In this document: positions 1-19,004 of the stretch, one piece after another
How positions within the stretch are numbered: the stretch's first letter is position 1
Layout: every line of letters starts with the position of its first letter
Source of the DNA: a phage
DNA length: 64,000 nt
Direction: 5' to 3' (one strand)
Assembly (NCBI GenBank): GCA_012813795.1
Contig: GCA_012813795.1_4087.1
Program-made: the position numbers and the translations under genes
The notes under the pieces: generated by a model
Database searches by the model: none
What the model was told of the DNA's origin: nothing
What the model saw: the letters and a program-made list of their open reading frames with translations, nothing else

Positions 1-371
1 TTCATTTACTACATACGACATAATCCATCCGTAATGGATAGGATGATATTTGTCTGAATCAGGAATAAAATATAAAGCTGTACTGGGATTATAACTGAAG
101 AAATCCCTCTCGTCAAATGTTAATCTGGCTAACTTAATTTTCCTTGGAATTGCATGAGGACGAACTGTATTCTTTACACAGAATATACCATCCTTGTATT
201 TTGGTACTATAACATCCAATGCACTCTGGATTAACTCCTGAAAGACTAAATTGATTTGTGCAAATGAATCCTTCTTGTTATGCATTTCGTGCCATAAATC
301 TCGTCTTGCATTTAACATCATTATTACTGGTCTAAGATCCTGTACTACTGTTAGATTCTGCATTGTATTCA
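1..371 (-). CDS. hypothetical protein, 5' part only (gene runs off the window start)
   Basis: Open minus-strand frame from ATG at 369-371 (MNTMQNLTVVQDL...) continuing to position 1 without a stop; not in the ORF track because it is truncated. Confidence 0.3.
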
Positions 372-589
372 TTTATCTCATTCTGTAACTTAACAACCAA
401 AATTTGCGTATGAATTTTTCGTTCAAGGTGCTTGATAAATTTCTGTACCATTTCTTCTTGTACTGATGTACCAAGATAAAATAACATATTAAATTCCGAT
501 AATCGCAAAGCAAAATCTTCATCGCCCCCTTGTAAACAAAAATCCCTGTACTTTGATGCGTACAAATGATGGTTTACATTTTTGTACAT
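332..589 (-). CDS. family-1 small protein (LGTNYQ-type paralogue; FYLGTSVQ variant)
   Basis: 85-aa ORF; shares the core motif and length class of the 24-member array. Confidence 0.55.
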   Translation of the reverse strand: MYKNVNHHLYASKYRDFCLQGGDEDFALRLSEFNMLFYLGTSVQEEMVQKFIKHLERKIHTQILVVKLQNEINEYNAESNSSTGS

Positions 590-792
590 TTAGACTCCTT
601 TGGTGTGCATACTATCTCTGTTCGTAAAGCCCTTATGTATGCATCAACAAATTGTGGCTGTGCTCTCGTTCCTAGATAAAATAATAAATCGAACTCTGCC
701 ATTTTAACATTAAAAGGATCTGAATCTACATTTCGAATAAAATGTCTGTACTTCAATTCATATCCGTTAGGCATCTTCTTGTATACTATCAT
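574..792 (-). CDS. family-1 small protein (FYLGTRAQ variant)
   Basis: 72-aa ORF with the family core motif. Confidence 0.55.
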   Translation of the reverse strand: MIVYKKMPNGYELKYRHFIRNVDSDPFNVKMAEFDLLFYLGTRAQPQFVDAYIRALRTEIVCTPKESKCTKM

Positions 793-1102
793 ATTCTATA
801 CAATCACCTCTTTTAATCGAATCCCAAACTTCCTTCATCTTCTTCTGTAATGCAATCATAATATCTATATCAAACATATAAGGGTCATGAATTAGACTGT
901 ACTGAAATAATTCATCTTCCTGCATAAGAGAAAGATCCTGAAGCAACTCGTACTTACCTAAACTCCTGGGACTCAAATAAGCAAAATATTCTTTACCGTC
1001 CTCAAAAACATAATGTACTTCATGATTCATGTACTTCTTGTAATTCTCATGCGTATAAGCAAATATACAACCGGAATTAATTCTATGAATGTTGAATTTC
1101 AT
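767..1102 (-). CDS. hypothetical protein, EEE-FQYSL motif family
   Basis: 111-aa ORF; motif EDELFQYSLIHD shared with 1110..1445, 1963..2304 and 58578..59156. Confidence 0.55.
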   Translation of the reverse strand: MKFNIHRINSGCIFAYTHENYKKYMNHEVHYVFEDGKEYFAYLSPRSLGKYELLQDLSLMQEDELFQYSLIHDPYMFDIDIMIALQKKMKEVWDSIKRGDCIEYDSIQEDA

Positions 1103-1109
1103 ATATCCC

Positions 1110-1445
1110 CTATATTACAATTCTATGCACATCTTGAATGAAATGCTTTGGAAGATTACTATACGATATCATCTGCCTTTGTACTTCCTTCATTTCATTG
1201 AACGTAAATCCAAAAGAATCATCGTGTACTAAACTGTACTGAAACTCTTCTTCTTCAGAGATATCAACTAGATTCGGTACTGCAATCTTGTTTCCTGTGG
1301 ATTTTACACCGTCTACCCAATAGAAACAATTATCAACTTTATTGTACTCAAATACCTTAACCCCAGAACCGCTCTGGAAATTGGACAACGCAATGAAACA
1401 GATTTTATCTCTGACAATACAATTGAATTTACGTGTCATCTCCAT
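1110..1445 (-). CDS. hypothetical protein, EEE-FQYSL motif family
   Basis: 111-aa ORF; motif EEEEFQYSLVHDD; paralogue of 767..1102. Confidence 0.55.
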   Translation of the reverse strand: MEMTRKFNCIVRDKICFIALSNFQSGSGVKVFEYNKVDNCFYWVDGVKSTGNKIAVPNLVDISEEEEFQYSLVHDDSFGFTFNEMKEVQRQMISYSNLPKHFIQDVHRIVI

Positions 1446-1681
1446 CTCTCTCCGTCATCGCAAGAGTACTGGTACGTTGTCGTTAGGGTAGGAACCATGT
1501 TTGTAATCGGCATGTTATTCACAATAACCGTTACGGGCATCATAACCGTCTCTTTTCTACTCTGTCCTGTCTTTGTGCAATTCATCTTGTGCATTTCATC
1601 TGAATCCAGATACGCTAATACAAACGGTGCAATCCCAAGAACAATACACAAGACGATAAGGAAATTTAAAAATTTTAACAT
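1436..1681 (-). CDS. small protein with hydrophobic N-terminal segment (possible membrane or secreted)
   Basis: 81-aa ORF; N-terminus MLKFLNFLIVLCIVLGIAPFVLA is TM/signal-like. Confidence 0.45.
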   Translation of the reverse strand: MLKFLNFLIVLCIVLGIAPFVLAYLDSDEMHKMNCTKTGQSRKETVMMPVTVIVNNMPITNMVPTLTTTYQYSCDDGERWR

Positions 1682-1719
1682 AATCTGTACCCTATGATTA
1701 ACGTTAGTGTACTATAGCA

Positions 1720-1950
1720 CTACATTAGAGTACTGTCAACTGCTTTGTTCTCTATTATGCTCATTAAACCCCAAATTAGATAACGAACACTATCAGCTTG
1801 ATAGTTAGTACCTACTGTGCATTTTAAAATTAACTCATCTTTCAGTACTGCACGTTCTTCTTGGGGTATAGGAAGAGAATTTATTTGTTGTATTTGTGGT
1901 TGTAAAGTATTAATAAGCTTACAGTACTCTTCGAATGATAATCTTTTCAT
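1720..1950 (-). CDS. family-1 small protein (VGTNYQ)
   Basis: 76-aa ORF with the family core motif. Confidence 0.6.
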   Translation of the reverse strand: MKRLSFEEYCKLINTLQPQIQQINSLPIPQEERAVLKDELILKCTVGTNYQADSVRYLIWGLMSIIENKAVDSTLM

Positions 1951-1962
1951 GGTTCAGTACTC

Positions 1963-2304
1963 TTAATACTCAATAATGTGTTCTTCATAAGCATCACGAG
2001 GCTCCTGTTTAGTTTCTTTCATTAGTACTATCATTTTATGTACTAAGGGCATAGGAAACTCTAAATCCCATACTAATGATTCCTGAAAGTATTCCTCTTC
2101 TGATAAAGTACTTAAATCTTCAATGTCAATGTGTTCGTACATATTATTTTCGTAATTAGCAAAAGATATATATAAACCTCCTGTGGAACTGTAAGTAACT
2201 GTGAATGGCGTACCCTTGTAGTCCATTACATCTTTACATAGACTACTTTTGATGTATATATTTTCATACGATATGTATACCTTGAGTTGAATATTAGTTT
2301 TCAT
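1963..2304 (-). CDS. hypothetical protein, EEE-FQYSL motif family
   Basis: 113-aa ORF; motif SEEEYFQESLVWD. Confidence 0.55.
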   Translation of the reverse strand: MKTNIQLKVYISYENIYIKSSLCKDVMDYKGTPFTVTYSSTGGLYISFANYENNMYEHIDIEDLSTLSEEEYFQESLVWDLEFPMPLVHKMIVLMKETKQEPRDAYEEHIIEY

Positions 2305-2306
2305 TT

Positions 2307-2528
2307 TTAAACACCTATTCCATTAGCAATAGCATCACGTAAAGCTGTCAAATACTTCTGTACTGCTTGCTCTTGATGATTTGTATCTAAAAGTATATAC
2401 ATCCATAATTCACTGTAATGTACATCTTGTGTATAAGGGTCATTGTAACTTTTTGATAATATAGCATCAAATTCAGATGCATGAACCCTTGTGAACTTAA
2501 GAATATCTTTTTGTGTTATGATTCTCAT
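2307..2528 (-). CDS. family-1 small protein (divergent LLDTNHQ)
   Basis: 73-aa ORF; stop/start overlap with neighbour. Confidence 0.6.
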   Translation of the reverse strand: MRIITQKDILKFTRVHASEFDAILSKSYNDPYTQDVHYSELWMYILLDTNHQEQAVQKYLTALRDAIANGIGV

Positions 2529-2740
2529 ATCTTTTCCTGTACTATCTTTATAAGAATCTCAATATATGAATTAACAGTTATTTCTTGATGCTGTGTTCCT
2601 AAGAGTAGCAGTACTATCATCTCTGAACGCAAAAGATTTTTTTCAAGTTCCCCTATATCAGTTCTTGTATCAAGTACAATAAATTCTTTCTTATTTTTTC
2701 TGAATAGTGCCAAGTACTCTTGGTTTGATATTTCCTTCAT
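2525..2740 (-). CDS. family-1 small protein (LLGTQHQ)
   Basis: 71-aa ORF; ATGA overlap with flanking paralogues. Confidence 0.6.
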   Translation of the reverse strand: MKEISNQEYLALFRKNKKEFIVLDTRTDIGELEKNLLRSEMIVLLLLGTQHQEITVNSYIEILIKIVQEKI

Positions 2741-2967
2741 AGTTTATCCCTGATGCCATTTAAAAGTGCTCTAATATGCTCCTGTACGAATTGGTACTGA
2801 CTGTCTGTTCCTAGAGTGAGTAACAATCTTAAATCTGAACTTTTGATATGATATTCTAAATCATTATTTGATTCTTGCATCAGTTTCTTAAAGGATGAGA
2901 AGTTTGCTGCCATTAGTTCAATGTATTCTGCTGTTCCTAGGGGTTTGTGTATGTGCTGTCTGTGCAT
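2737..2967 (-). CDS. family-1 small protein (LTLGTDSQ)
   Basis: 76-aa ORF; start codon uncertain. Confidence 0.5.
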   Translation of the reverse strand: MHRQHIHKPLGTAEYIELMAANFSSFKKLMQESNNDLEYHIKSSDLRLLLTLGTDSQYQFVQEHIRALLNGIRDKL

Positions 2968-3179
2968 TTTAATTGTATTACCCTTTTGAGTGTATTAATG
3001 TAATTATAAACATTGGCTTCTTGATAGTTAGTTCCTAGAGTAGCTTGAACGTAGATTTCATTTAACTTAATAATTTTATCCGTATCTGGTAGTTTTGATG
3101 TGTTAATGGCAAATAACTTCAAAAACAGTCCATTTATGATTGTTCGGTATTCTTCTCCGGTAATGATTCGCATTTGCAT
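2937..3179 (-). CDS. family-1 small protein (ATLGTNYQ)
   Basis: 80-aa ORF with the family core motif. Confidence 0.6.
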   Translation of the reverse strand: MQMRIITGEEYRTIINGLFLKLFAINTSKLPDTDKIIKLNEIYVQATLGTNYQEANVYNYINTLKRVIQLKCTDSTYTNP

Positions 3180-3379
3180 TGGATAGACCTTTGGAGTGTA
3201 TTAAGATAATCCACGATGATGTGTTCTTGATAGTTAGTTCCTATAGTAGCTAGAACATAGATTTCACTTATTAGAATATTTTTTTCATCCTGTGATAATT
3301 CTTCTGACCAGCTACGATGCAACTTTGGAATTAAACTACTTAATAGTTGGTTGTATTCAGTAGGTGAAATGATTTTCAT
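3134..3379 (-). CDS. family-1 small protein (ATIGTNYQ)
   Basis: 81-aa ORF with the family core motif. Confidence 0.6.
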   Translation of the reverse strand: MKIISPTEYNQLLSSLIPKLHRSWSEELSQDEKNILISEIYVLATIGTNYQEHIIVDYLNTLQRSIQCKCESLPEKNTEQS

Positions 3380-3591
3380 TTACATCTTCTCAGTACTGAT
3401 TCTTTAAGTTCATCGATGTAGTCCTCAACAAATTGTTCTTGTAGGTTTGTTCCGAGATGTAACAGTACTCTTAAATCTGCTCTCAGTACTTCTTTGTCAT
3501 CTTCATCTATATCAGACAGTGATATGTTTAAGAATTTACTTGAATTCTCTATAAGTAATATTACTTCATCACCTTCGCTTAAAATTTTCAT
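3376..3591 (-). CDS. family-1 small protein (LHLGTNLQ)
   Basis: 71-aa ORF; ATGA overlap. Confidence 0.6.
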   Translation of the reverse strand: MKILSEGDEVILLIENSSKFLNISLSDIDEDDKEVLRADLRVLLHLGTNLQEQFVEDYIDELKESVLRRCK

Positions 3592-3797
3592 AATCTTTGT
3601 GTTTTCCTCGACAGTAGATACAGGTAACGTTCAGTGCATTGTTCTTGATAGTTTGTTCCTAATAAATGAACTAATTGTTGTTCAGCTATAGAAAGCTGTT
3701 TATCTTCATAACAAGCGTATCGTTGTTTCCTATGGTATTCTTTATTGATAACATCAAGGATGATAACACCGTATTCGTCATCGGTCAAGTGTTTCAT
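3588..3797 (-). CDS. family-1 small protein (HLLGTNYQ)
   Basis: 69-aa ORF with the family core motif. Confidence 0.6.
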   Translation of the reverse strand: MKHLTDDEYGVIILDVINKEYHRKQRYACYEDKQLSIAEQQLVHLLGTNYQEQCTERYLYLLSRKTQRL

Positions 3798-4035
3798 GTG
3801 CTTTTCTTTTTCTTATATGTTTAGTTAAAAGGTATATTAGTTTTCTTACGTACTCGTCTTGATAGTTAGTCCCTAATAGTGCAAGAAGTTTTGCTTCAAC
3901 TAAAGCTAATTGTCGTTCTTCAAATGTGTGTTCCAGAATGTACTTGGGGTTTGATTTTTTAGAAATTGCACTATTAGTCTTCATTATAATCTTATGATAT
4001 TCATTGACCGTCAAGATTTTTATATTCTTGATCAT
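3778..4035 (-). CDS. family-1 small protein (ALLGTNYQ)
   Basis: Track ORF 3778..4146 trimmed to internal Met MIKNIKILTVNEY, which matches family N-termini and removes overlap with the next gene. Confidence 0.5.
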   Translation of the reverse strand: MIKNIKILTVNEYHKIIMKTNSAISKKSNPKYILEHTFEERQLALVEAKLLALLGTNYQDEYVRKLIYLLTKHIRKRKAHETLDR

Positions 4036-4255
4036 ATATCTTTTCCTTAATAGTAATTTTAAGATATCTAAGAATCGATCGAACATAATAATCCTGTCTA
4101 TCGGTTCCAAGAAAGTACAGGAGTTGTTGATATAATACTTCTGCACTCCTTGCAGCAGGGGTTTGGTTTGGGTCTTTTGGAAGTTGATTTGTATGTTTTC
4201 TGGATTTAATTATTCTTTCTTTTATTTCATCGTCTGTTAAGTATATCATTTGCAT
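4001..4255 (-). CDS. family-1 small protein (YFLGTDRQ)
   Basis: Track ORF 4001..4291 trimmed to Met at MQMIYLTDDEI. Confidence 0.5.
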   Translation of the reverse strand: MQMIYLTDDEIKERIIKSRKHTNQLPKDPNQTPAARSAEVLYQQLLYFLGTDRQDYYVRSILRYLKITIKEKIYDQEYKNLDGQ

Positions 4256-4482
4256 TTTATGTTCCTCACATGAATTGTTTGGATTAAACATTCAATCCAA
4301 GATGTAACATATCTTGTTTGATATTGTGTGCCTAAGAGACTCTGCATTTTAAACTCTGCTTCAAGTTCATATCTCTTTTCTATCGTAAAGCTTAAATGAC
4401 CATATTCTGCATCGTATCTTCTCAGTGATTCCCCAATTCTAGTAAATCTTTCTGCTAAGTTGATGTTATTCACAGTATTCAT
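4246..4482 (-). CDS. family-1 small protein (SLLGTQYQ)
   Basis: 78-aa ORF with the family core motif. Confidence 0.6.
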   Translation of the reverse strand: MNTVNNINLAERFTRIGESLRRYDAEYGHLSFTIEKRYELEAEFKMQSLLGTQYQTRYVTSWIECLIQTIHVRNIKCK

Positions 4483-4742
4483 CGATCAGTACACCTCAGT
4501 GGTTGGGTCATTTGATAAAAGTACAGCTTACCTCTGATTTCCATTAACAACTCGGCGATGACGCGATTTACTTCTGTCTCTTGATAGTTTGTTCCTAAGA
4601 AGACACCCATCTTTAACTCACGATGCATAATCATCTTCTTACTGTGTTGAATTTCTTGGCTGTAATAGATTGCATTACGTTTAGGTGAGATTTTTGCTAG
4701 TCGCTCGTTATATTCATCTTGACTTAAATTGATCATTTGCAT
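4479..4742 (-). CDS. family-1 small protein (VFLGTNYQ)
   Basis: 87-aa ORF; ATGA overlap. Confidence 0.6.
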   Translation of the reverse strand: MQMINLSQDEYNERLAKISPKRNAIYYSQEIQHSKKMIMHRELKMGVFLGTNYQETEVNRVIAELLMEIRGKLYFYQMTQPLRCTDR

Positions 4743-4957
4743 TTACTTTGGACCTCATTTTGAAGTGCATTAATGACCTTCAGTACAGCACTCGCTTGAT
4801 AGTTTGTTCCTAAGACTGAAAGCATCTTGATCTCATTTACTACAATCCACTTATTTGATTGTTCAATAATGTAACTTTCATAAATGGCCTTGCGTAATGA
4901 ATAAGTTTTTGCAAGACGTACATAATATTCATCTTTACTTAAATTAATCATTTGCAT
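4733..4957 (-). CDS. family-1 small protein (SVLGTNYQ)
   Basis: 74-aa ORF; N-terminus MQMINLSKDEY is near-identical to that of 4479..4742. Confidence 0.6.
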   Translation of the reverse strand: MQMINLSKDEYYVRLAKTYSLRKAIYESYIIEQSNKWIVVNEIKMLSVLGTNYQASAVLKVINALQNEVQSKCK

Positions 4958-5166
4958 TTACTTTTAACCTCTTTCTGGAGTGCATCAATCCATAGGTCTA
5001 TATACGTTTGTTGATAGTTTGTGCCTAAGAGTGCCTCTACATAGAGTTCAGCTACCTTTGCGTGCTTTAGGTCAACAGGGATGCTCTTATCGCTTGATAA
5101 CATTCTCCTTCTGCTGGTGCATGTTTTCAGAAGCCTGATGTATTCAACACCTTGTAATTTTCTCAT
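4948..5166 (-). CDS. family-1 small protein (ALLGTNYQ)
   Basis: 72-aa ORF with the family core motif. Confidence 0.6.
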   Translation of the reverse strand: MRKLQGVEYIRLLKTCTSRRRMLSSDKSIPVDLKHAKVAELYVEALLGTNYQQTYIDLWIDALQKEVKSKCK

Positions 5167-5378
5167 TCTCTGGATATCACCTTGTTACGTAGACTTGCTA
5201 ACCATGCGTCAGTATAGATGTTTTGATAGTTTGTCCCAATGAAGATAGATAGCTTCATTTCAGTTATTATAACACATTTGTCCACTTGTGCAATAGATTT
5301 GTTTAAAGAAATACTAGAAACTTTTGCTTGTATAGTTCGCAACAGCCTGTAATATTCATACCCACTAAGGATTTTCAT
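5163..5378 (-). CDS. family-1 small protein (IFIGTNYQ)
   Basis: 71-aa ORF; ATGA overlap. Confidence 0.6.
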   Translation of the reverse strand: MKILSGYEYYRLLRTIQAKVSSISLNKSIAQVDKCVIITEMKLSIFIGTNYQNIYTDAWLASLRNKVISRE

Positions 5379-5625
5379 TCTCTCGTCTCCAGACTTCCGT
5401 TCTTATATGTTGTTGATATGCTTCCAGATAGTTCTCTATTGCCTTAGCGATTGTTTGTGTATCGTCTCCCGTCATCAGTACAAGCATCTCTGCTTCACAG
5501 TGAATAAGTCTGCTGATATCATTAGTGAGTTTATCAGATACTGTATCATAGTGTTTGTGGATTAGTTTCTGAAATAGTTTAACGTACATGATGTGATTTA
5601 TTCTGGATCGCATTGTCTTTTCCAT
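5365..5625 (-). CDS. family-1-like small protein (divergent; LVLMTGDDTQ)
   Basis: 86-aa ORF embedded in the array; weaker motif match. Confidence 0.45.
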   Translation of the reverse strand: MEKTMRSRINHIMYVKLFQKLIHKHYDTVSDKLTNDISRLIHCEAEMLVLMTGDDTQTIAKAIENYLEAYQQHIRTEVWRRENENP

Positions 5626-5849
5626 TCTCTTTTGGTCTGGCGGGTTTTATATGCTACAAGGTTTCTTAGTGCATTGATATAACGATCAGTGAAGATATCT
5701 TGTTTATTAGTTCCAACGAATTTAAGAAGAAACACGTCACCATTAACTACATCATTCTCAGGGGAAGGATAAAGTTCATTGTTCTTGCGAAGGGTGTTTA
5801 GTAAAGAGAATAGGGCAGATTGATACTCAGTGCTTGATAATACTTTCAT
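5598..5849 (-). CDS. family-1 small protein (KFVGTNKQ)
   Basis: 83-aa ORF with the family core motif. Confidence 0.55.
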   Translation of the reverse strand: MKVLSSTEYQSALFSLLNTLRKNNELYPSPENDVVNGDVFLLKFVGTNKQDIFTDRYINALRNLVAYKTRQTKREWKRQCDPE

Positions 5850-6073
5850 TAGTTCATTCCCTTTCTTTCTATATGTTTCATAAGAACATTAAGATACTCA
5901 CCCACAAACCTATTCTGATACTGCGTCCCCATGAATTCAAACAGCCATACTTCAGCAACCATTTCTTCAATTTCATTCCAAGATAAGTACATCATAGTGA
6001 AGTAAATGTGGTTCTCTTTTTGAGATGCACACCTTGAGCGAGCCTCGTATTCAAAGTTATTAATGCAGTTCAT
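5849..6073 (-). CDS. family-1 small protein (EFMGTQYQ)
   Basis: 74-aa ORF with the family core motif. Confidence 0.55.
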   Translation of the reverse strand: MNCINNFEYEARSRCASQKENHIYFTMMYLSWNEIEEMVAEVWLFEFMGTQYQNRFVGEYLNVLMKHIERKGMN

Positions 6074-6282
6074 AGTTTACTCCTGATGTATTTCTCAAGA
6101 GCTATTAGATACTCTTGGACATAAGATTTCTGGTGGTCAGTTCCTAAGAAGACACCCATAAGTAATTCTTTTTCCATAACTTTTGATAAGTGTACATCAT
6201 CACGGTCTGCATATATCAGCAAGATTTCAATCTGCTTAGAATTGTAACGTTTCCTATATTGCTCTGGTGTTAATATAATCAT
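6070..6282 (-). CDS. family-1 small protein (VFLGTDHQ)
   Basis: 70-aa ORF; ATGA overlap. Confidence 0.6.
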   Translation of the reverse strand: MIILTPEQYRKRYNSKQIEILLIYADRDDVHLSKVMEKELLMGVFLGTDHQKSYVQEYLIALEKYIRSKL

Positions 6283-6497
6283 AGTTTACTCTTTATATCT
6301 TCAATTAAAAATCCAATCCAATCATTGACATACTCTTCCTGAAAGTTTGTGTCCAGTACAGCCATCATGCGATATTCTGCTCTTTTGGCGTCGATTACAG
6401 TTTTAGGGAGGTCACCATGTATATCTATCATGTCATCAAGGTATTTCAATATACGACCAAATGCTTGTGTCTGTGTTATGATTTTCAATGTTTGCAC
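6279..6497 (-). CDS. family-1 small protein (AVLDTNFQ)
   Basis: 72-aa ORF with the family core motif. Confidence 0.55.
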   Translation of the reverse strand: MQTLKIITQTQAFGRILKYLDDMIDIHGDLPKTVIDAKRAEYRMMAVLDTNFQEEYVNDWIGFLIEDIKSKL

Positions 6498-6685
6498 CTC
6501 GCTCGTATGTCAGCTTTCAAAGATTCCAAATAGTGAGTTATCCACACTTCCTGATAGTTGGTTCCCATCGCAATCAACAGGTACAACTCAACTCTTTCTA
6601 AGTGCACATTGCTTTGGTAAATCCTTGCCGTGTTTTTACGTAGTATATGATGATATTCATCTTGGGTTAATGTACGCATTTTCAT
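6485..6685 (-). CDS. family-1 small protein (IAMGTNYQ)
   Basis: 66-aa ORF with the family core motif. Confidence 0.6.
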   Translation of the reverse strand: MKMRTLTQDEYHHILRKNTARIYQSNVHLERVELYLLIAMGTNYQEVWITHYLESLKADIRARCKH

Positions 6686-6879
6686 AGTTTACCATTTATC
6701 TCTAAACATAACTCTTTTACATATAGTTTAACATATTCATTTTGTAAGTTAGTTCCTAAGAATAGTTCCATAACTAATTCACGTTTATAGGCATTACCAC
6801 GTTTATGAGACTTATACATTATCATAGCCATGTTATTGATAAGTCTTTCGTGATGCTCTTCTTGGGTTAAAATACGCAT
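6682..6879 (-). CDS. family-1 small protein (LFLGTNLQ); first gene of the array
   Basis: 65-aa ORF; ATGA overlap with 6485..6685. Confidence 0.6.
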   Translation of the reverse strand: MRILTQEEHHERLINNMAMIMYKSHKRGNAYKRELVMELFLGTNLQNEYVKLYVKELCLEINGKL

Positions 6880-6949
6880 AGGGTAAATTCCATAGGTTCA
6901 TATATGAAAAAACATCATACCCCATACGAGGCATGATGTCAAGTAGAAC

Positions 6950-7372
6950 TTATTTTTTCAAATAATTACATATATCGTTAATACTCATATTTTCTTGTTT
7001 AGTATATGGCCTGGTGTTTTCATATAAATCCCCAGATACACCGTTGTCATGTGGAACAGATAAATTACCCACATCAAACGAACTAATTACTGTATTTGAT
7101 ACATCAAGAAGGTTGAATTTATATTGGTTACTGGGTGTATCTAAAACAAATTGACCTTTATAATCTGAATATTCAATGTTAAATATTTCAGAATCATCAC
7201 TTATGAAATAAACACTTGAACGCATAACATCTTCATTCTTATTAACACAATTAATCAACATAGAATTCGATAGTATATGATAACTGAATGACATTTTTAG
7301 TAAGTTTTTTGGAAATTGAACATTTGCATCCATTTGTATATTAGAATTATAATCAACTTTAAATTTAATCAT
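6950..7372 (-). CDS. hypothetical protein
   Basis: 140-aa ORF, no recognisable motif. Confidence 0.5.
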   Translation of the reverse strand: MIKFKVDYNSNIQMDANVQFPKNLLKMSFSYHILSNSMLINCVNKNEDVMRSSVYFISDDSEIFNIEYSDYKGQFVLDTPSNQYKFNLLDVSNTVISSFDVGNLSVPHDNGVSGDLYENTRPYTKQENMSINDICNYLKK

Positions 7373-7607
7373 TGGTTTCTCCTTATGTTATTTGTTATGA
7401 TTATAGCATACGAAACATTTTTGTCCCACCCATGAACCCCTTCACACGAGCTAAGCAATTACCCGCCCCTAGTTGCCCTAAGTTATAATAACAGGTCGTT
7501 ATTATCACTGGGGTTATAAGGTATTGGTTCATTTTTTAATTGAGTCAATTATTTTTTGACTCAATTATTTTCTGACTAATAGTTTTAGTACTGAATCATT
7601 TAATTCA

Positions 7608-7817
7608 TTAATCATTACTTACTGCAATGATAATCTGCGTATCCGCGTAGTCCTGCCAGACTTCACCGCCAGCCTTTGCCCTGGTTAGTCGTGCTGTCAT
7701 CTGCTTAATAGTCTTAGGCTTTAGTGGAACCTGTTGCAGTACTGTACGCATAGCATCATCGACGTTATAGTGTACGCCTGCAATAGTACCTAGAACGCTG
7801 TATACTGTATAGTTCAT
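7608..7817 (-). CDS. hypothetical small protein
   Basis: 69-aa ORF. Confidence 0.5.
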   Translation of the reverse strand: MNYTVYSVLGTIAGVHYNVDDAMRTVLQQVPLKPKTIKQMTARLTRAKAGGEVWQDYADTQIIIAVSND

Positions 7818-7885
7818 GTGTATGTACTCCTGATATAGTTAAGGCCGCTAGAGAGCGGCCTATGATGTTTGGTGATGTGTAACGC

Positions 7886-8287
7886 TTACAACCCTAAGAT
7901 AGTACGGGCTTCGTTACGCTCCTTAGTCTGCTGCATGATGTAAGCGAGCAAGTCCTTACTAATGTATCCCGTGCCCATAGCTTCACGGATGGATACATCA
8001 TAAGCACCGAACCCCGTGCGAACGATACGCACATCATTCAGGTTAGTGTTATAGATACCGCCGAGGTCAACGGCTTCAAATACTGCATCAACAGTATATT
8101 CATTGTTACCATCATTGAAGTTTTCCAGTTCAATAGTATTGTTAGTTGCCCAACGTTTACAGCTTCCAATGATGCGGCAATATTCAGGGTGCATGTGACC
8201 ATTGTTTACAGCATACTCCATGCCAGCTTTACCAAAAGTCCGAGCCAGTACTAAAACGTCAGCGTAGGAAGTGATTGAGAAAGTCAT
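7886..8287 (-). CDS. hypothetical protein
   Basis: Track ORF trimmed to Met MTFSITSY at 8287, preceded by an RBS and a promoter/stem-loop cassette; the track N-terminus is read-through of the promoter. Confidence 0.6.
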   Translation of the reverse strand: MTFSITSYADVLVLARTFGKAGMEYAVNNGHMHPEYCRIIGSCKRWATNNTIELENFNDGNNEYTVDAVFEAVDLGGIYNTNLNDVRIVRTGFGAYDVSIREAMGTGYISKDLLAYIMQQTKERNEARTILGL

Positions 8288-8306
8288 GGTAGTACTCCTT
8301 AAGTTA

Positions 8307-8369
8307 GGAGGGAGAACCATTTCCCCCTCTCTATGTAAAACATTATACACTTTACTAAGTACTATGCAA
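8307..8369 (-). promoter_or_regulatory. early-type promoter plus 5' stem-loop cassette (minus strand: TTGCAT-N-TATAAT then GGGAGAA..TTCCCCC hairpin)
   Basis: Plus strand shows atgcaa (8364-8369) and attata (8342-8347) with a GGGAG-containing inverted repeat between the -10 box and the ATG at 8287; same architecture recurs >30 times. Confidence 0.6.
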
Positions 8370-8376
8370 GTACTTT

Positions 8377-8709
8377 TTACATTTTAATACCTGGATTCAG
8401 GTAGCGGTGAGATCCATATTCTGGATCGGTTTCGGTCCAGTACTGTAAATCGATAGTACCTTTAGCGTTAATCTTGTCTACCAGCTTATTCATCTTAGCG
8501 TATACTACGTCCGCATCGATGCGTTTAAAGCCAGTAGCTTTAGTGTAGTAGTAGTGATTTGCTTCGCTATCATTGAGGATATACCGAGCACCGTTTGCAG
8601 TTTGTGCGATAATGATTGAGTATTCTACTTCCCGATCCAGCCCGTCAATGAATACAGATGAAACATTGGTACGGATGAAAGCGTTTACGATAGCGATTGA
8701 AGTACTCAT
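8377..8709 (-). CDS. hypothetical protein
   Basis: Trimmed to Met MSTSIAIVNAF at 8709 with RBS GGAG. Confidence 0.55.
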   Translation of the reverse strand: MSTSIAIVNAFIRTNVSSVFIDGLDREVEYSIIIAQTANGARYILNDSEANHYYYTKATGFKRIDADVVYAKMNKLVDKINAKGTIDLQYWTETDPEYGSHRYLNPGIKM

Positions 8710-8860
8710 TTGTGAATCTCCTAACTTTGTGGGCCGTCGCACCATTGCCGCCCTACGAGATACATTATTGCAGTACTGCTATACTTTGTCAATAGTTTTT
8801 TATTAATAGTTTTCCACTCCACCAGCAGATAGTTACTCACCGTTATTAACTATATATTTT

Positions 8861-8950
8861 AGATACACCTATGCACCCTGTGGGCTAGTTTTTGTCTATG
8901 CGTATATAATAGCAAAGGGACTGACCGGAGTCAATCCCTTTTTTTATTCT
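8861..8950 (-). terminator. repeated intergenic module: conserved motif, hairpin GGGATTGAC-UCCG-GUCAGUCCC (minus RNA), -10-like TATTAT
   Basis: Hairpin at 8917-8938; its 5' arm carries TTGACT; near-identical copies at 11932-12025, 15245-15335 and 17701-17800. Confidence 0.5.
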
Positions 8951-8956
8951 TTTTTG

Positions 8957-9157
8957 TTAGATGATCTTCCAATCTTCCACGATCATTGTAAGATACCGAA
9001 CCATCGATTCGAGTGATTCGAATTCACGATAATCTGTCGCCCCACCAGCGGTACAAGTACAACCGATTAAGCCATTTTGCAATTCCTTAATCTGTACATC
9101 GATAAGGTTAGCTTTAGCTTCTTTCAGTACTTCAACCAGTGCGATAGCGATAGACAT
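8957..9157 (-). CDS. hypothetical small protein
   Basis: 66-aa ORF with promoter/stem-loop cassette upstream. Confidence 0.55.
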   Translation of the reverse strand: MSIAIALVEVLKEAKANLIDVQIKELQNGLIGCTCTAGGATDYREFESLESMVRYLTMIVEDWKII

Positions 9158-9180
9158 AATGTTTTACTCCAAACTATTGG

Positions 9181-9240
9181 CGGGAGAACTATTCCCCCGC
9201 TCTATGTAAAACATTATACACTATAGGATAGTACTGTCAA
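9181..9240 (-). promoter_or_regulatory. promoter plus 5' stem-loop cassette (TTGACA-N16-TATAAT; GGGGGAATAGTTCTCCC hairpin)
   Basis: Plus strand shows tgtcaa (9235-9240) and attata upstream of ATG 9157. Confidence 0.55.
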
Positions 9241-9246
9241 ATAGTT

Positions 9247-9504
9247 TTATGAGATATCCTCGATATAGTCGGCCCATTTCATTTTTTCAGTACTGTCAAT
9301 GGCTACCGGATTATTTGGATCAAACCATTCACCATTACCGCAATACATCCCCACGGCAACGGTTTTATATCCATCCTGGGCCGTATTCCAGGCAAGGCCA
9401 CGATAGATACGGCCTTTAACTGGTTGCAGTACTGGTAACGTTTTATGGTCTTCTACGTAGGCCATAGCTTGAGGATTTACCCGATATTGTGTGAATTGTT
9501 CCAT
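9247..9504 (-). CDS. hypothetical protein; paralogue of 9585..9851
   Basis: 85-aa ORF; shared pattern LP...P..G..Y....W....Q..Y.......Y.G.G.W.DP with its neighbour. Confidence 0.6.
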   Translation of the reverse strand: MEQFTQYRVNPQAMAYVEDHKTLPVLQPVKGRIYRGLAWNTAQDGYKTVAVGMYCGNGEWFDPNNPVAIDSTEKMKWADYIEDIS

Positions 9505-9584
9505 GATGTTTCCCCTTTTAATATTGGGGGAGTATTCCCCCTATGCAAAACATTATACACTATCAGTTAGTACTGTCAATACTA

Positions 9585-9851
9585 TCAATTAAATTTAGGA
9601 TGTATTTCAATGTAGTCACAATAAGGAAAATATTCAATATAACGCGTAGTGATTGGATGTAACGGATCGGACCATACACCGCTACCCTCATAGCGTGCTA
9701 GTGGGCCTTTTAAGTACTTTTGTTGTTTCCTTGACCAGTATATGGATTGATAGACTACACCAACGGCAGGGACAACGAGCGGGAGCATAGAGTGATCTAA
9801 TACAACGGATTGATAATTTTTATTATAGCGATATGTTGTTTTCTTTTTCAT
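9585..9851 (-). CDS. hypothetical protein; paralogue of 9247..9504
   Basis: 88-aa ORF. Confidence 0.6.
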   Translation of the reverse strand: MKKKTTYRYNKNYQSVVLDHSMLPLVVPAVGVVYQSIYWSRKQQKYLKGPLARYEGSGVWSDPLHPITTRYIEYFPYCDYIEIHPKFN

Positions 9852-9903
9852 TGTTAACCTATTATAGAAATTATTAAGGGGATATTATCATCCCCTTTTA
9901 TTG

Positions 9904-10128
9904 TTATACTAGATTATTTAATCCTCTTATGGTTGATGCTTTTTCTTCTTTCTCCCATTGACGGTAATACTTCCATGCTTCGTGATAGGTGGCGATCAGT
10001 TCATCTTTTTGATCCTGATTACATGCCAGTACTGAATCACGGAAAGCGGTGTTATAGATAGAATCGAATGATTTCTTTTCTGCCGCCAGGTTAGATACTT
10101 CCCGAATCAGTTCATCATGATTAGCCAT
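9904..10128 (-). CDS. hypothetical small protein
   Basis: Trimmed to Met MANHDELIRE at 10128. Confidence 0.55.
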   Translation of the reverse strand: MANHDELIREVSNLAAEKKSFDSIYNTAFRDSVLACNQDQKDELIATYHEAWKYYRQWEKEEKASTIRGLNNLV

Positions 10129-10196
10129 CGTAGTACTCCTTATTAGTGGGGGAGGATATCTCCCCCTATGCAAAACATTATACTTTGTTTTACTTA

Positions 10197-10460
10197 CTAT
10201 GCAAGTACTTTTTTCATATAAACATTAAATTCTACACCGCCGTAACCTTCTACGATGATATGTTTTGCGTTATCACGCTTGCACATAGTGAAACCGTTGT
10301 TGATATGTTCTGCATTTTCCAGGGATACATCACCGATAGCGGCACATACGGCACTTATAACAGTATTCCGCAAAGTACTGGTATCGTTAGCGGTCATAGT
10401 AGTTTGCAGTACTACGTTGTCGTATACGTGTGCATTGATAGTGATTTCAATAGCGTTCAT
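10197..10460 (-). CDS. hypothetical small protein
   Basis: Trimmed to Met MNAIEITI at 10460; track N-terminus MFYIERGKWFPL is translated promoter hairpin. Confidence 0.55.
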   Translation of the reverse strand: MNAIEITINAHVYDNVVLQTTMTANDTSTLRNTVISAVCAAIGDVSLENAEHINNGFTMCKRDNAKHIIVEGYGGVEFNVYMKKVLA

Positions 10461-10547
10461 GGTGTATCTCCTGGACTTGAGGGGAAACCATTTCCCCCTC
10501 TCGATATAAAACATTATACGTTGATCTAACTACAATGCAAGTACTTT

Positions 10548-10739
10548 TTAAATTTTATTTCCGATATAGTCCGGCCTATTCTTTTCGGTCATACGCTTTG
10601 CTAATGTTTGCATATGGCTTATCGCGTTTAAGGTGTCTTCCTCCAGGGATGAATCAACATAATCAGGATCATTCTTCACCTTACAATGATTATGATAGCG
10701 TAGTACTGCCAGTACTTTTTTAACTTCTTCAACTGTCAT
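10548..10739 (-). CDS. hypothetical small protein
   Basis: 63-aa ORF; stop/start overlap with 10736..11008. Confidence 0.5.
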   Translation of the reverse strand: MTVEEVKKVLAVLRYHNHCKVKNDPDYVDSSLEEDTLNAISHMQTLAKRMTEKNRPDYIGNKI

Positions 10740-11008
10740 AATAAGTATTCCACTTCGTTAGCTTTCAGGTTAGTATCAATCATCAGTGGATTTTTGTAGT
10801 TCACAAAACGATTAGTTTTCTCGATAGCGAATCCCATATAATCCAGCTTACTAACAGTACATTCATTCTTAAAAACTTCTTTCGCTGCATCGATGGCTGA
10901 TTGCATGGATAACCGACCATCTAAATTAATGTTTCCAAATGATCCACCAGCAGAAGTAGGATTACCGTTCATATCTTTAATGATCATAGTAGCGGAGTAG
11001 CTAGACAT
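10736..11008 (-). CDS. hypothetical small protein
   Basis: 90-aa ORF. Confidence 0.55.
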   Translation of the reverse strand: MSSYSATMIIKDMNGNPTSAGGSFGNINLDGRLSMQSAIDAAKEVFKNECTVSKLDYMGFAIEKTNRFVNYKNPLMIDTNLKANEVEYLL

Positions 11009-11095
11009 AATTTTGTTTCCTTTTAGTATCGGGGAGAACTATTCTCCCCTTGATGTAAACTATTATACAGTACTGATATACTTTGTCAAATACTT

Positions 11096-11503
11096 TTATT
11101 CGCCCATATAGATTAGATTATCATCGCCTACATAGGGATCGCAAACGTTGATTTCTTCGCAGTACTTAGTGAATACATCGTCATAGTGACCGATATCACG
11201 ATCCCAAAAGCCAGTGCCGTGACCTTCGCGAGTAAGAAAGAGATCATGACCTGCATGATTATAAGTATAATCAGGATTATGGTGTTTTTGTACTGTTTCC
11301 ATATCTTCACCATGTACAGCAAGGAAACGTGAACATGCAATCACTGCCGCTTGATGGGCTTGCTCTGATAATTCATAATCTTCCAGGTAATCGCCGTTCT
11401 CATTGTATACAGTACTGAATTGCATAGCTTCAATGTAACCAGCGACCATTGCAGCATGATTTTTATCGTTGGTGATGTTCCGAGCTTGATTAGTAGTAGT
11501 CAT
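11096..11503 (-). CDS. hypothetical protein (His/Asp/Tyr-rich)
   Basis: 135-aa ORF; the 85-bp cassette upstream is an exact duplicate of the one upstream of the previous gene (11010-11095 vs 11504-11586). Confidence 0.55.
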   Translation of the reverse strand: MTTTNQARNITNDKNHAAMVAGYIEAMQFSTVYNENGDYLEDYELSEQAHQAAVIACSRFLAVHGEDMETVQKHHNPDYTYNHAGHDLFLTREGHGTGFWDRDIGHYDDVFTKYCEEINVCDPYVGDDNLIYMGE

Positions 11504-11586
11504 GTTTTTATTCCTTTTAGTATCGGGGAGAACTATTCTCCCCTTGATGTAAACTATTATACAGTACTGATATACTTTGTCAATAC

Positions 11587-11808
11587 TTAATTACGTTTAA
11601 AATGATATGTGCCTTTATCATCCTGAACGCCCCATACTGATTTACCATCAACACCAGTGAAGCCGGATTGTAATTCAATATGGAAACCATTATTATCAAC
11701 TACAAAAACTTTTTTATTTTCATCCCGATAACATTGATATTCTGAATCAACATTAAAGGCCGCATCATTCAGAAGATTGGAAGCGTAAATGCAAGTCATT
11801 GTAGTCAT
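11587..11808 (-). CDS. hypothetical small protein
   Basis: Trimmed to Met MTTMTC at 11808 with RBS AAGGAA. Confidence 0.55.
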   Translation of the reverse strand: MTTMTCIYASNLLNDAAFNVDSEYQCYRDENKKVFVVDNNGFHIELQSGFTGVDGKSVWGVQDDKGTYHFKRN

Positions 11809-12028
11809 GATTTTATTCCTTATTGCCAGGGAGAACCGTTTCCCCCTCTCGATATAAAACATTATACTTGATTCTAAGTACAATGCAAGTACTTTTTAAA
11901 AATAGTTTTCAGTACTCAATCATTATACAATAGATACACTCCCGCACCCTATGGGTCAGTGAGCTATCTCTCAATGAATATATAATAGCAAAGGGACTGA
12001 CCGGAGTCAATCCCTTTTTTAATCTTTT

Positions 12029-12613
12029 TTATCGTGTTATAGTTACGGCTTTTACGTCGCGTTGTTTATAGTACTGATTCCAAATATTGCGGGTTAAACC
12101 GTAATCAAGTACTTTAATCAGGCCATTGCGATCCTCGCCTATGTTCTGCTTTCTGATATCTCTTATCGTTAGTGTTGATAAGGTATCATCAACGTGTTGT
12201 AGTGCATCAGCGAAATGGTGTTGGCGTTCAATAGTGTTACGTTTAACATTGTACTTTAATTCATTGCAAGCGTTAACGTGCTTTACACTGCCTTTGCTTG
12301 CAGTACTCAAACGATCCATAACAATAAACATATTATCAGGATCGCTTAAATGCATATGCACTTTCGCAAAGAACTGTTTCAACCGAGGACGGTCATAATC
12401 TAAAAAATTCCATACCTTACATTCTGTTTCATTTTGTTCTACGCCAGCATCACAATTCGCGACCTTAATCACTAACCGATCATTTAAAGCGAATACGATA
12501 CGGGATGATCCGGCCCCGATGATTTCAAGTCCAGCCAACCGACAAACTGTAAGGATCTCTTTGTTAGTTTCCATTTCTGCCAGTGCCCGGATGAATTTAG
12601 TATAGTTACGCAT
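12029..12613 (-). CDS. putative small protein-kinase-like protein
   Basis: 194 aa; ordered motifs IGAGSSRIVF (Gly-rich loop), VIKV (Lys), IRDIRKQN (catalytic-loop-like), VLDYG (DFG-like). Fold assignment is by eye only. Confidence 0.4.
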   Translation of the reverse strand: MRNYTKFIRALAEMETNKEILTVCRLAGLEIIGAGSSRIVFALNDRLVIKVANCDAGVEQNETECKVWNFLDYDRPRLKQFFAKVHMHLSDPDNMFIVMDRLSTASKGSVKHVNACNELKYNVKRNTIERQHHFADALQHVDDTLSTLTIRDIRKQNIGEDRNGLIKVLDYGLTRNIWNQYYKQRDVKAVTITR

Positions 12614-12682
12614 TGCATTTACTCCTTAAGATAGCAGGGAGGTATTCCCTGCCTTGATGTGACTATTATATGTTAGTACTAA

Positions 12683-12910
12683 TTAGATTGCAACAGTTTT
12701 ATTTGCAATTACTGAATGAATTGCGGTTTTACCTGATTTAGTACTGAATACATTAGCACGACCATTTTCAATAGTGATGCGGTATTCACCTTTACTATCA
12801 ATGAGGTTGATAAATTCAGGAGTACTAAACCGAGTTACTTTAAAAGTCAGTACATTGAGCAGGTCCACCAGCGTAGTAGTTTCTTTGATGCGTTCTAAGA
12901 TATTAATCAT
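12683..12910 (-). CDS. hypothetical small protein
   Basis: 75-aa ORF. Confidence 0.5.
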   Translation of the reverse strand: MINILERIKETTTLVDLLNVLTFKVTRFSTPEFINLIDSKGEYRITIENGRANVFSTKSGKTAIHSVIANKTVAI

Positions 12911-12975
12911 TTTGTTTCTCCAGTTATTCCGTGTTGGTATAGATACATAGTACTAAAACATTTGAGTACTGTCAA

Positions 12976-13194
12976 TTAGATAATTGCATATTTCTTTAAA
13001 GATAATGCGTCTTGTGTTGGCTGATACTCCACGCCGTTACCGTTATCTACTTTAACTAATAAACCTTTGTCAATTAGTTTTTTAATAGTCCGTTGGCCTT
13101 GTTGAAAATTGGTAAAGTGTGAATCATTACGAAAGGTGTAACCATGTTGGATAGCTACATCAATAGTTTTCTTTTCGACTTTAGATAAATTCAT
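12976..13194 (-). CDS. hypothetical small protein, possibly winged-helix DNA-binding
   Basis: 72-aa ORF; QRTIKKLIDKGLLVKV resembles a recognition helix plus wing. Confidence 0.4.
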   Translation of the reverse strand: MNLSKVEKKTIDVAIQHGYTFRNDSHFTNFQQGQRTIKKLIDKGLLVKVDNGNGVEYQPTQDALSLKKYAII

Positions 13195-13248
13195 TTTGTT
13201 ACTCCCCGTGTTGGTATGTACATATAGTACTAAAACATTTGAGTACTG

Positions 13249-13503
13249 TCAACGTGATATTAGTTTTATTTTCTTATTATATTGTTGGTGTTCATAGAGG
13301 TTCATCTTTCCGGTATTCTCGATTACTATCCTGTTGTTAGTGTCCACATCGATTACACGCAGTTTTCCGTTGCTTAACTTCCTCGGTAATAGATTACCAT
13401 TAATAAACTCATTAGCGAGCGTGACGGCCTTTGTGATGATTCTCTGAGGGGCTTTATAGTGTACCCGCAAGATATTATCTTTAGATAGTTGTACCTTAAT
13501 CAT
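13249..13503 (-). CDS. hypothetical small protein
   Basis: 84-aa ORF. Confidence 0.5.
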   Translation of the reverse strand: MIKVQLSKDNILRVHYKAPQRIITKAVTLANEFINGNLLPRKLSNGKLRVIDVDTNNRIVIENTGKMNLYEHQQYNKKIKLISR

Positions 13504-13565
13504 TTTAGTTTATCCTATAAAAAAGGCGGGAACTGATCCCGCCGTGTTGTTAGTACTGCAAGTTA

Positions 13566-13961
13566 TTAGATAACCTGGCGGCGTTTACTGAATACTGTTA
13601 CACGATTACCCTTACGATCATGTCGGATCTCTTTCTGGTTGCGAACCAGTTCACTTGGACGCTTGAGGTTTGCCAGGTGATCCGCGTGAGTCCAAGCGGT
13701 ATGGTTTGCCTGTACTTTGATATCAGAACCAGCGATAAACTCATCTTGTGCGTCAAGTATTGCCGCCAGCATATCCGCTCGTTTTAGTTCTGCTGCTGTC
13801 AGTACTGGTTCAGGTGAATTCACAATATCAGAGATTTCTTTGAACTGTACGGCCCAGCGTTGGCCTTTCGGTGCTGTCGTTCCCATGTCTTTAAATGCTG
13901 CTCCTTCCTCGCGTGCAACAATACGGGCAGCTTCACGGGTAGCGTAGAATTTAGTAATCAT
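13566..13961 (-). CDS. hypothetical protein; paralogue of 24881..25147
   Basis: Start placed at the second ATG (MITKFYATREAAR) with better RBS spacing; shares ATFKDMG and C-terminal HDRKGNRVTV with 24881..25147. Confidence 0.55.
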   Translation of the reverse strand: MITKFYATREAARIVAREEGAAFKDMGTTAPKGQRWAVQFKEISDIVNSPEPVLTAAELKRADMLAAILDAQDEFIAGSDIKVQANHTAWTHADHLANLKRPSELVRNQKEIRHDRKGNRVTVFSKRRQVI

Positions 13962-14056
13962 GGTATACATCCTATTAGTTAAGTTAGTACTACAAGTTAG
14001 AGTCTATTATAAAGTACTATCTGGGCAATGTCAAATAGTACTTTAAATGGATTCTA

Positions 14057-14380: not shown

Positions 14381-14468
14381 TTTTATTTCTCTCTCTTTGT
14401 TAGGAGGGGAACCGTTTCCCCTCACTTGATGTAAACTATTATACAGTACTAAGATACTTTGTCAATAC

Positions 14469-14651: not shown

Positions 14652-14739
14652 TTTTATTTCTCTCTCTTTGTTAGGAGGGGAACCGTTTCCCCTCACTTGA
14701 TGTAAACTATTATACAGTACTAAGATACTTTGTCAATAC

Positions 14740-16425: not shown

Positions 16426-16429
16426 AATC

Positions 16430-18999: not shown

Positions 19000-19004
19000 A
19001 TTAA

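Follow-up and report, generated by a model that had tools for sequence, protein, structure and literature searches.

Early gene sets at long terminal repeats are known from several phages, such as the first-step-transfer genes of T5, the host-takeover module of SPO1 and the Tre genes of Kayvirus. In T5, SPO1 and T7, the early regions that enter first or are associated with the terminal repeat code for small proteins of host takeover and anti-restriction. In African swine fever virus (ASFV; MGF110, MGF360 and MGF505) and in the terminal families of poxviruses, tandem paralogs lie near the genome terminus and show unequal recombination, chimeras, variation between strains, and a conserved scaffold with variable surface. 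Here we describe a stretch of phage DNA of 64,000 nucleotides (nt), contig GCA_012813795.1_4087.1 of GenBank assembly GCA_012813795.1, which is called the window below. Its minus strand carries, in positions 332-6879, a tandem array of 24 genes for small paralogous proteins with an LGTNYQ-type core.

The array is like the gene sets of T5, SPO1 and Kayvirus in having many small, probably non-virion proteins of unknown fold in or next to a long terminal repeat. Those sets have strong host-type promoters; at the head of the array there is a candidate for one, a consensus match, and early timing is presumed. Those sets consist mostly of unrelated genes, often with their own promoters, and in this they resemble the neighbouring repeat region with its 23 promoter cassettes (see below), not the array. 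In the array one family is expanded 22-31-fold, gap-free and just outside the repeat, and it has no sequence similarity with those genes. The features listed above for the ASFV and poxvirus families are shared by the array, whereas hosts and folds are unrelated, and the role in immune evasion and host range is demonstrated there and hypothesised here. The duplications of the array are old, in contrast to the transient amplifications of poxvirus "genomic accordions". Tandem arrays of paralogous immunity proteins were also described in bacterial polymorphic-toxin systems by Zhang, Iyer and Aravind (PMC3113570, PMC3482391). These are likewise small, diversified, soluble binders, each thought to neutralise one effector variant, but no toxin gene adjoins the present array, it resembles them neither in sequence nor in profile, and it does not match colicin-immunity or other Pfam immunity families, so this is analogy only.

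Hua et al. (2017, mBio, PMC5646251) noted such a tandem array in phage 121Q in one sentence, and the remark was repeated in the phAPEC6 paper. Genes ~319-347 of 121Q are syntenic orthologues of the array, with 25 members detected by hidden Markov model (HMM), and they are most likely the array which Hua et al. noted, the same locus and the same family. The observation of the array is thus neither new nor unique to this phage. We found in the literature no account of family, fold, position or function beyond that sentence. Phage 121Q and the window phage are different species (~85% nucleotide identity), the latter with 24 copies and its own allele set.

Nucleotide matches to genus members place the window phage in Asteriusvirus (PBECO4/121Q/A4-like jumbo phages). 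About 40 Asteriusvirus jumbo phages of Escherichia and Salmonella (PBECO4, 121Q, G17, phAPEC6 and others; 310-386 kb) match the first 9 kb and the 30-46 kb region of the window, with nucleotide identity of ~82-86% and query coverage up to 80%. Among cultured relatives, phage A4 (ON286972) is the closest across the array, and most of its members show 90-100% identity at the protein level. A contig assembled from run SRR2034070 is 100% identical to window 1948-8166, and a 359-kb contig labelled E. coli encodes a protein identical to one of the array members. Complete E. coli genomes searched for the array region gave no match.

Membership and fold of the array family

The preliminary description had listed 24 consecutive minus-strand open reading frames (ORFs) of 65-87 amino acids (aa) with a common LGTNYQ-type signature. 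All 24 ORFs are present in 332-6879. They form an unbroken block from F1 to F21 (2307-6879; members are numbered from the array head as in Table 1), while "consecutive" does not hold for the last three members (1720-1950, 574-792 and 332-589), which are interleaved with four other genes, three of phrog_13866 and a hydrophobic 81-aa ORF (1436-1681). The length range holds as well, only with internal starts for ORFs 3778-4146 and 4001-4291. The motif [LIVMF][GD]T..Q was found in 22 of the 24 ORFs, and in all six frames of the 64-kb window it occurs 22 times within 332-6879 and once elsewhere.

An HMM built from the 24 members matched exactly those 24 ORFs and no other in the 64 kb. Leave-one-out HMMs, with Z set to all 784 ORFs, recovered 23 of 24 members with E-values of 3e-8 to 1e-20. 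The same number matched PHROG 4148, a family of unknown function (best E 3.4e-26), and residues 1-65 of F1 align to positions 1-71 of the 74 in the PHROG 4148 profile. The common ancestry proposed for these ORFs is therefore borne out by leave-one-out HMMs, by PHROG membership and by a common high-confidence fold.

The remaining ORF, X7 (5365-5625), was not recovered by its leave-one-out HMM and had no PHROG match. Profile-profile alignment with hhalign gave a probability of 72% (E = 3.4e-5) with 67 columns in register. The motif of X7 reads MTGDDTQ, and its orthologues in six phages have a ratio of nonsynonymous to synonymous substitution rates (dN/dS) of ~0.3. A shallow AlphaFold model of X7 from three sequences was all-helical with breaks at equivalent places, with a predicted local distance difference test score (pLDDT) of only 62. 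We treat the array as 23 clear members of the PHROG 4148 family plus X7 as a divergent member with a probably decayed motif.

The structure of F9 was predicted by AlphaFold2 from a 48-sequence alignment, with pLDDT of 95.9 and a predicted template modelling score (pTM) of 0.79. The model has four helices (residues 6-14, 17-25, 31-46 and 52-71), and residue 2 pairs with T49 in a beta-bridge. Conservation was taken from the column entropies of a 247-sequence family alignment. Conserved hydrophobic columns are spaced i, i+3/4, i+7 (L4, Y9, L13, I23, V36, L43, L47, V56, Y59, I60, L63 and I67), position 40 is also conserved as hydrophobic, and residues 41-47 of helix 3 are almost wholly hydrophobic. 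Helix 1 is preceded by the conserved columns (T/S)5-x-x-E8 and helix 4 by G48-T49-x-x-Q52, and nearly all remaining columns have near-maximal entropy. In our interpretation of the model, the two conserved boxes look like N-capping boxes of helices 1 and 4, and the LGTNYQ signature would be part of the fold skeleton and not an obvious active site. T49 and Q52 are 98% invariant, which is stricter than helix capping alone would require.

Nearly all members have a negative grand average of hydropathicity. Their isoelectric points (pI) range from 4.4 to 9.8 and net charges from -8 to +8, and about half are basic (pI 8.7-9.8). No signal peptide or hydrophobic transmembrane stretch was evident on inspection of the sequences, for which no dedicated predictor was run. 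The members are predicted to be soluble four-helix proteins of ~8-10 kDa.

Structure matches in BFVD were only Asteriusvirus paralogs (121Q, UB, slurp01 and PBECO4; TM-score 0.57-0.92). A tblastn search with F9 found only Asteriusvirus-type phages of Escherichia and Salmonella, the genomes of Rak2, GAP32 and CBB not being scanned directly, and a chimeric query of six more-divergent representatives added just Turkey5 and JNE01, both of them E. coli jumbo phages. At a cutoff of E <= 1e-3, an exhaustive HMM search of 1.84 billion cluster representatives gave only 91 clusters. Roughly half of them have <50% identity to even the closest member of the seven sampled phages, which means that unsampled, mostly uncultured lineages exist; the remaining divergent lineages are uncultured.

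Selection, duplication and recombination

Selection on the array genes was estimated against their orthologues in fEgEco12, G17, PBECO4, SD-15_S21 and 121Q. Median dN/dS was 0.36-0.41 and median dN 0.15-0.22, compared with dN/dS of 0.22-0.27 and dN of 0.07-0.11 in six neighbouring or embedded non-family genes. Array genes are thus under purifying selection, which is weaker than on their neighbours; their dN is roughly double the value for flanking genes. Every synonymous codon is in use for the invariant G, T and Q residues (for Thr: ACT 7, ACC 2, ACA 12 and ACG 2), so the conservation is at the level of protein and not of a DNA repeat. Because dN/dS against orthologues in six phages is ~0.4, synonymous codons vary and all 24 copies are intact, translation of these ORFs is supported indirectly.

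Every relative examined carries the array, and the gene order is conserved. The copy number is 24 in the window, 23 in A4, 25 in 121Q, 27 in SD-15_S21, 30 in fEgEco12, 31 in G17 and in PBECO4, and 22 in Turkey5. The number of copies had first been called exceptional: 24 copies are confirmed, but they stand at the low end of the genus range of 22-31, and the kind of array was already mentioned for 121Q in 2017. Identity is 47-95% between orthologues and ~37% to the best paralog within the genome. Together with the conserved order, this indicates that the expansion predates the genus.

The best paralog is the adjacent gene for 11 of 24 members, compared with 2.0 expected, and none of 5000 permutations reached 11 (p < 2e-4). 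This pattern holds in all six other phages tested and points to tandem duplication as the origin. F10 and F11 share 71% nucleotide identity over 198 nt. In the overlaps between genes, the C-terminal "...SKCK" and the N-terminal "MQM..." are two reading frames of a single conserved junction, AAATGCAAATGA, which suggests that the duplication unit included the junction.

Unequal crossing-over between adjacent copies still expands and contracts the array. A4 and contig ERR7425836_490 each have a single gene that consists of residues 1-57 of F17 fused in frame to the C-terminus of F18. The fusion results from the deletion of exactly one unit (206 bp, window 3000-3205), the flanks being 100% and 99% identical, and it is derived, since both F17 and F18 are present in other phages. 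Single cassettes are also exchanged between phages: F9 is 60% identical to its counterpart in A4 and 85% to that in PBECO4, and F18 and F12 switch similarly. Between the window and A4 (332-9157), the median synonymous rate (dS) is 0.05 for array genes and 0.28 for the adjacent repeat-region genes, which indicates a recent recombination breakpoint near the array head.

Surface columns differ in ~90% of paralog pairs, compared with 20-40% of orthologue pairs. The fastest-changing positions (18, 25, 53/54, 57/58, 61 and 68) map to helix 2 and to a single face of helix 4. A surface that is variable between paralogs yet kept within orthologues means that each paralog is maintained as a distinct entity. 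We are highly confident in the anatomy and evolution of the array as described here.

In Turkey5 (PQ471516) 20 contiguous, strongly diverged members lie at 8137-13728 with the same upstream repeat-end genes, and two isolated members (17297-17509 and 23467-23682) lie several kb downstream. The latter show that the family can disperse from the array.

Gene packing and position beside the terminal repeat

ATGA overlaps had been proposed to link many of the genes into one long operon. With starts set at the family N-terminus M-(K/R)-I-(L/I)-(T/S), 13 of the 20 junctions from F1 to F21 are 4-nt (A/T)TGA overlaps (12 ATGA and one TTGA). The remaining seven overlap by 1-46 nt, and the block contains zero intergenic bases. 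At the array head there is a sigma-70-like promoter-like site (6942-6914), and TTGACT-16-TATTAT is found at the equivalent position in fEgEco12 and 121Q. In its -10 region, GTATGATGTTTT, the head site is similar to the GTATAATGTTTTA cassette found with the terminal-repeat genes. The same site also forms an inverted repeat with a T-run behind it (hairpin overlap), and could double as terminator of the upstream ORF. The internal site at 1739-1711 could be a second promoter for the last five genes. Neither Rfam families nor tRNAs were found. As there is one promoter-like head site, no gap, 13 NTGA junctions and no repeat-type cassette in the array, a single translationally coupled operon is plausible but unproven.

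The position relative to the genome terminus was taken from fEgEco12, which has direct terminal repeats of 20,993 bp by PhageTerm call, and restriction digests agree with this (PMC13070987). In fEgEco12 the first gene of the array has its start at 21,091, ~100 bp beyond the repeat boundary. By blastn the repeat of fEgEco12 maps to window ~7,455-27,945, so the window runs through the collapsed genome terminus. By the same homology the physical left end is near 27,945, and gene strand and GC skew switch there (~28 kb). The array begins ~575 bp past the inferred repeat boundary; it adjoins the repeat and is not inside it. It is thus inferred to be the first block of the unique region past the boundary, and its head site would be the first promoter-like site after it.

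The repeat-equivalent stretch is organized differently from the array. We identified 23 copies of a cassette TTGCA-N16-GTATAATGTTTTA, all on the minus strand in 8336-27559, compared with 0.38 expected, and each is followed by GAGAGGGGGAA...TTCCCC, a G-rich hairpin. None was found in the array, and none elsewhere in the window outside the repeat-equivalent stretch. From these cassettes, the repeat appears to be divided into numerous short units that each carry a promoter of their own.

Coordinates of the array genes and of the features around them are listed in Table 1.

Table 1. Genes and sites of the array region in descending order of position. E-values in the fourth column are from leave-one-out HMMs.
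Feature	Position	Strand	Leave-one-out E	Remarks
Homologue of right boundary of fEgEco12 left repeat	7440..7470	.		by sequence homology
ORF of 140 aa between repeat boundary and F1	6950-7372	-		own promoter-like site 7427-7400
Sigma-70-like promoter-like site, array head	6914..6942	-		TTGACA-17-TATGAT; consensus match, 11/12 positions
F1, 65 aa	6682..6879	-	3e-10	100% identical to phage A4 and P0013
F2, 66 aa	6485..6685	-	2.5e-16	ATGA overlap with F1
F3 (LDTNFQ)	6279..6497	-	2.7e-11	likely true start TTG at 6488, TTGA overlap
F4, 70 aa	6070..6282	-	2.2e-14	
F5, 74 aa	5849..6073	-	4e-12	
F6, 83 aa	5598..5849	-	7.8e-9	
X7, 86 aa	5365..5625	-		divergent; hhalign 72%, E 3.4e-5
F8, 71 aa	5163..5378	-	1.3e-16	
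F9, 72 aa	4948..5166	-	6.4e-20	structure-modelled member; AlphaFold2 pLDDT 95.9
F10	4733..4957	-	1.3e-20	second ATG, 4951, gives ATGA overlap
F11, 87 aa	4479..4742	-	3.4e-20	
F12, 78 aa	4246..4482	-	4.7e-11	
F13 (LGTDRQ), 84 aa	4001..4255	-	3.4e-8	length from MQMIYLT start
F14, 85 aa	3778..4035	-	2.5e-15	length from internal ATG
F15, 69 aa	3588..3797	-	4.1e-12	
F16, 71 aa	3376..3591	-	2.1e-17	net charge -8
F17, 81 aa	3134..3379	-	5e-20	
F18, 80 aa	2937..3179	-	3.1e-18	
F19, 76 aa	2737..2967	-	7.7e-12	
F20, 71 aa	2525..2740	-	6.8e-17	
F21 (LDTNHQ), 73 aa	2307..2528	-	4.2e-14	end of unbroken block
B3, second family, 113 aa	1963..2304	-		phrog_13866 (function unknown) E 4.8e-9; no Pfam match
F22, 76 aa	1720..1950	-	7.2e-14	
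Sigma-70-like internal site	1711..1739	-		TTGACA-17-TATAGT, extended TG; consensus match only, 11/12 positions
Hydrophobic ORF, 81 aa, non-member	1436..1681	-		phrog_8826 (function unknown) E 2.9e-30; leader-like by sequence look
B2, second family, 111 aa	1110..1445	-		phrog_13866 E 6.5e-9
B1, second family, 111 aa	767..1102	-		phrog_13866 E 2.8e-13
F23 (LGTRAQ), 72 aa	574..792	-	7.5e-10	
F24 (LGTSVQ), 85 aa	332..589	-	5.6e-10	final array gene

The three genes of the second family share the motif EE(E)FQxSL(V/I)(H/W)D. Of the six phages compared, only A4 and fEgEco12 have an orthologue of B2, and B1 is just ~45% identical to its counterparts outside A4. For the unrelated 140-aa ORF next to F1, neither an orthologue in these six phages nor a match in PHROG or Pfam was found. 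A4 and contig ERR7425836_490 have a different ORF of 273 aa in its place, which marks a swap site.

Two other tandem sets lie in the window. Just outside the boundary at ~27,945 there is a second, unrelated array on the minus strand (28271-29939) of eight consecutive ORFs of 61-81 aa, which share M(Y/N)KE(Y/F)Y..LP...C(T)...LY..L.LI(F/Y)(R/K)Y; the ORF at 28271-28513 also has a (QYN)x6 repeat. In 30000-46000 (plus strand) there is a tandem paralog set of RCC1-like "DNA condensation / regulator of chromosome condensation" genes, whose homologues in phAPEC6 (gp003-gp010, gp549 and gp551) are virion proteins. This region is 96% identical to A4 over the alignable 31% and only ~83% to most other relatives.

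Possible function and significance

We propose that the array would be transcribed early by the host RNA polymerase from the head promoter, and that coupled translation of the block would let all paralogs be made together. The proteins would have no part in the virion and would work in the cytoplasm of the infected cell as a mixture of binders against host factors, for takeover or counter-defence, and each paralog may recognise its own target or target variant via the exposed faces of helices 2 and 4. This functional part is drawn by analogy with the small early proteins that T5, SPO1 and T7 encode in their leading or terminal-repeat regions, and with the terminal multigene families of poxviruses and ASFV; it is tentative, and we regard it as possible rather than probable. 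Taken as a whole, an old tandem family of four-helix proteins acting as early, coupled, host-directed binders is the best explanation we can offer, and its chance of being right may be a little short of even.

Published data for a relative bear on the place of action. In phAPEC6 the array homologues are gp462c-gp489c, and mass spectrometry of the phAPEC6 virion found 62 proteins, including one of 4.7 kDa (PMC7247149). None of gp462c-gp489c was among these 62; these data are for phAPEC6 and not for the window phage.

Several points weigh against host-directed binders. We found no transcriptome or proteome of Asteriusvirus infection in the literature. The promoter calls are consensus matches only. 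In nearly all comparisons dN/dS stays under 1, so the genes as a whole give no sign of an arms race. The anti-defence loci that are known tend to bring together unrelated genes and do not usually expand a single family. There is also no link of the family to characterised anti-defence or host-takeover proteins. Searches of Pfam, NCBIfam and PADLOC gave isolated single-member E-values of 0.001-0.2 and no consistent match (in PADLOC-DB, scattered single-member matches at E 0.001-0.03 to unrelated models), the family profile against all PDB sequences gave E > 1.8, and Foldseek of the F9 model against PDB gave E > 2.

A more far-reaching form of the proposal is speculative, and we think it doubtful. 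The array could be a phage-encoded binder library on a previously unrecognised four-helix scaffold, in which paralogs would neutralise different host immunity effectors or variants of one polymorphic host factor. Crossing-over at the LGTNYQ-coding segment would then shuffle the halves formed by helices 1-3 and by helix 4 into new specificities, and the array would be the bacterial-virus counterpart of the poxvirus and ASFV immune-evasion families.

Other explanations were considered. The paralogs might co-assemble into a hetero-oligomeric intracellular structure, with the coupling fixing their proportions. Gap-free packing with NTGA coupling agrees with this, the hydrophobic part of helix 3 (41-47) could be an interaction surface, and the paralog lineages are individually conserved, as expected of non-interchangeable subunits. 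But copies vary from 22 to 31, and members were lost, fused or swapped among close relatives without apparent harm, which is hard to square with a fixed stoichiometry, and the spread of net charge (-8 to +8) also speaks against such a structure. We consider it unlikely, with a small chance of being right.

The proteins might instead be nucleic-acid-binding regulators that tune phage or host expression, with LGTNYQ..V..YI..L as a helix-turn-helix (HTH) like element of sigma-70 region 4 or LuxR type. On paper the likeness is a turn followed by an amphipathic helix with the pattern V..(Y/W)I..L...I. It is a superficial resemblance to HTH recognition helices, and the basic pI of about half of the members would suit it. 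However, no HTH family was found at E <= 1 (Pfam) or E <= 0.1 (NCBIfam) for any of the 24 members, the model does not superpose on a tri-helical HTH core, and fold searches, helix lengths and charge spread give no support. This role is improbable.

It is equally improbable that the array is largely dispensable ballast, with duplications fixed as a larger capsid tolerates or requires DNA, and with redundant function at most. Copy number varies freely, dN is above that of the neighbours, and Hua et al. 2017 read such arrays as a genome-expansion ratchet (PMC5646251). Against it, all 24 copies are intact and dN/dS is ~0.4, not ~1; paralog-specific residues are kept across the genus and the start/stop coupling is preserved. 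The duplications are also old (paralogs ~37% and orthologues 47-95% identical), and neutral filler would have decayed.

Targets in other phages or mobile elements in place of the host, as in superinfection exclusion or inter-virus competition, would fit the presumed early expression, diversified surface and turnover equally. The members are predicted to be soluble and cytoplasmic, whereas classic exclusion proteins are often membrane proteins, and we give this explanation a very low probability.

That the array is only a chance motif or a repeated DNA element and not translated genes has practically no probability: the motif-coding DNA CTTGATAGTTnGTnCCTA (plus strand) does recur every ~200-215 bp, but leave-one-out E-values to 1e-20, dN/dS <1, a confident fold and conservation in >40 phage genomes rule out chance, and the free variation of synonymous codons at invariant residues rules out a DNA element.

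Most genes of jumbo phages are "hypothetical proteins", and every Asteriusvirus devotes 22-31 genes, ~2% of its genome, to this array; several of these phages are being considered for therapeutic use. Should the proteins indeed be host-directed binders, the array would be a compact natural experiment in diversifying one scaffold against many targets, it could yield new inhibitors directed at bacterial proteins or defence systems, and it might contribute to explaining host range. Even without a function, it offers a clean, datable case of birth-and-death evolution and of in-frame domain shuffling by unequal crossing-over, and it bears on the proposal that jumbo genomes grow by tandem duplication. 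A genus-wide block with an orphan fold and live recombination is a reasonable target for experiments.

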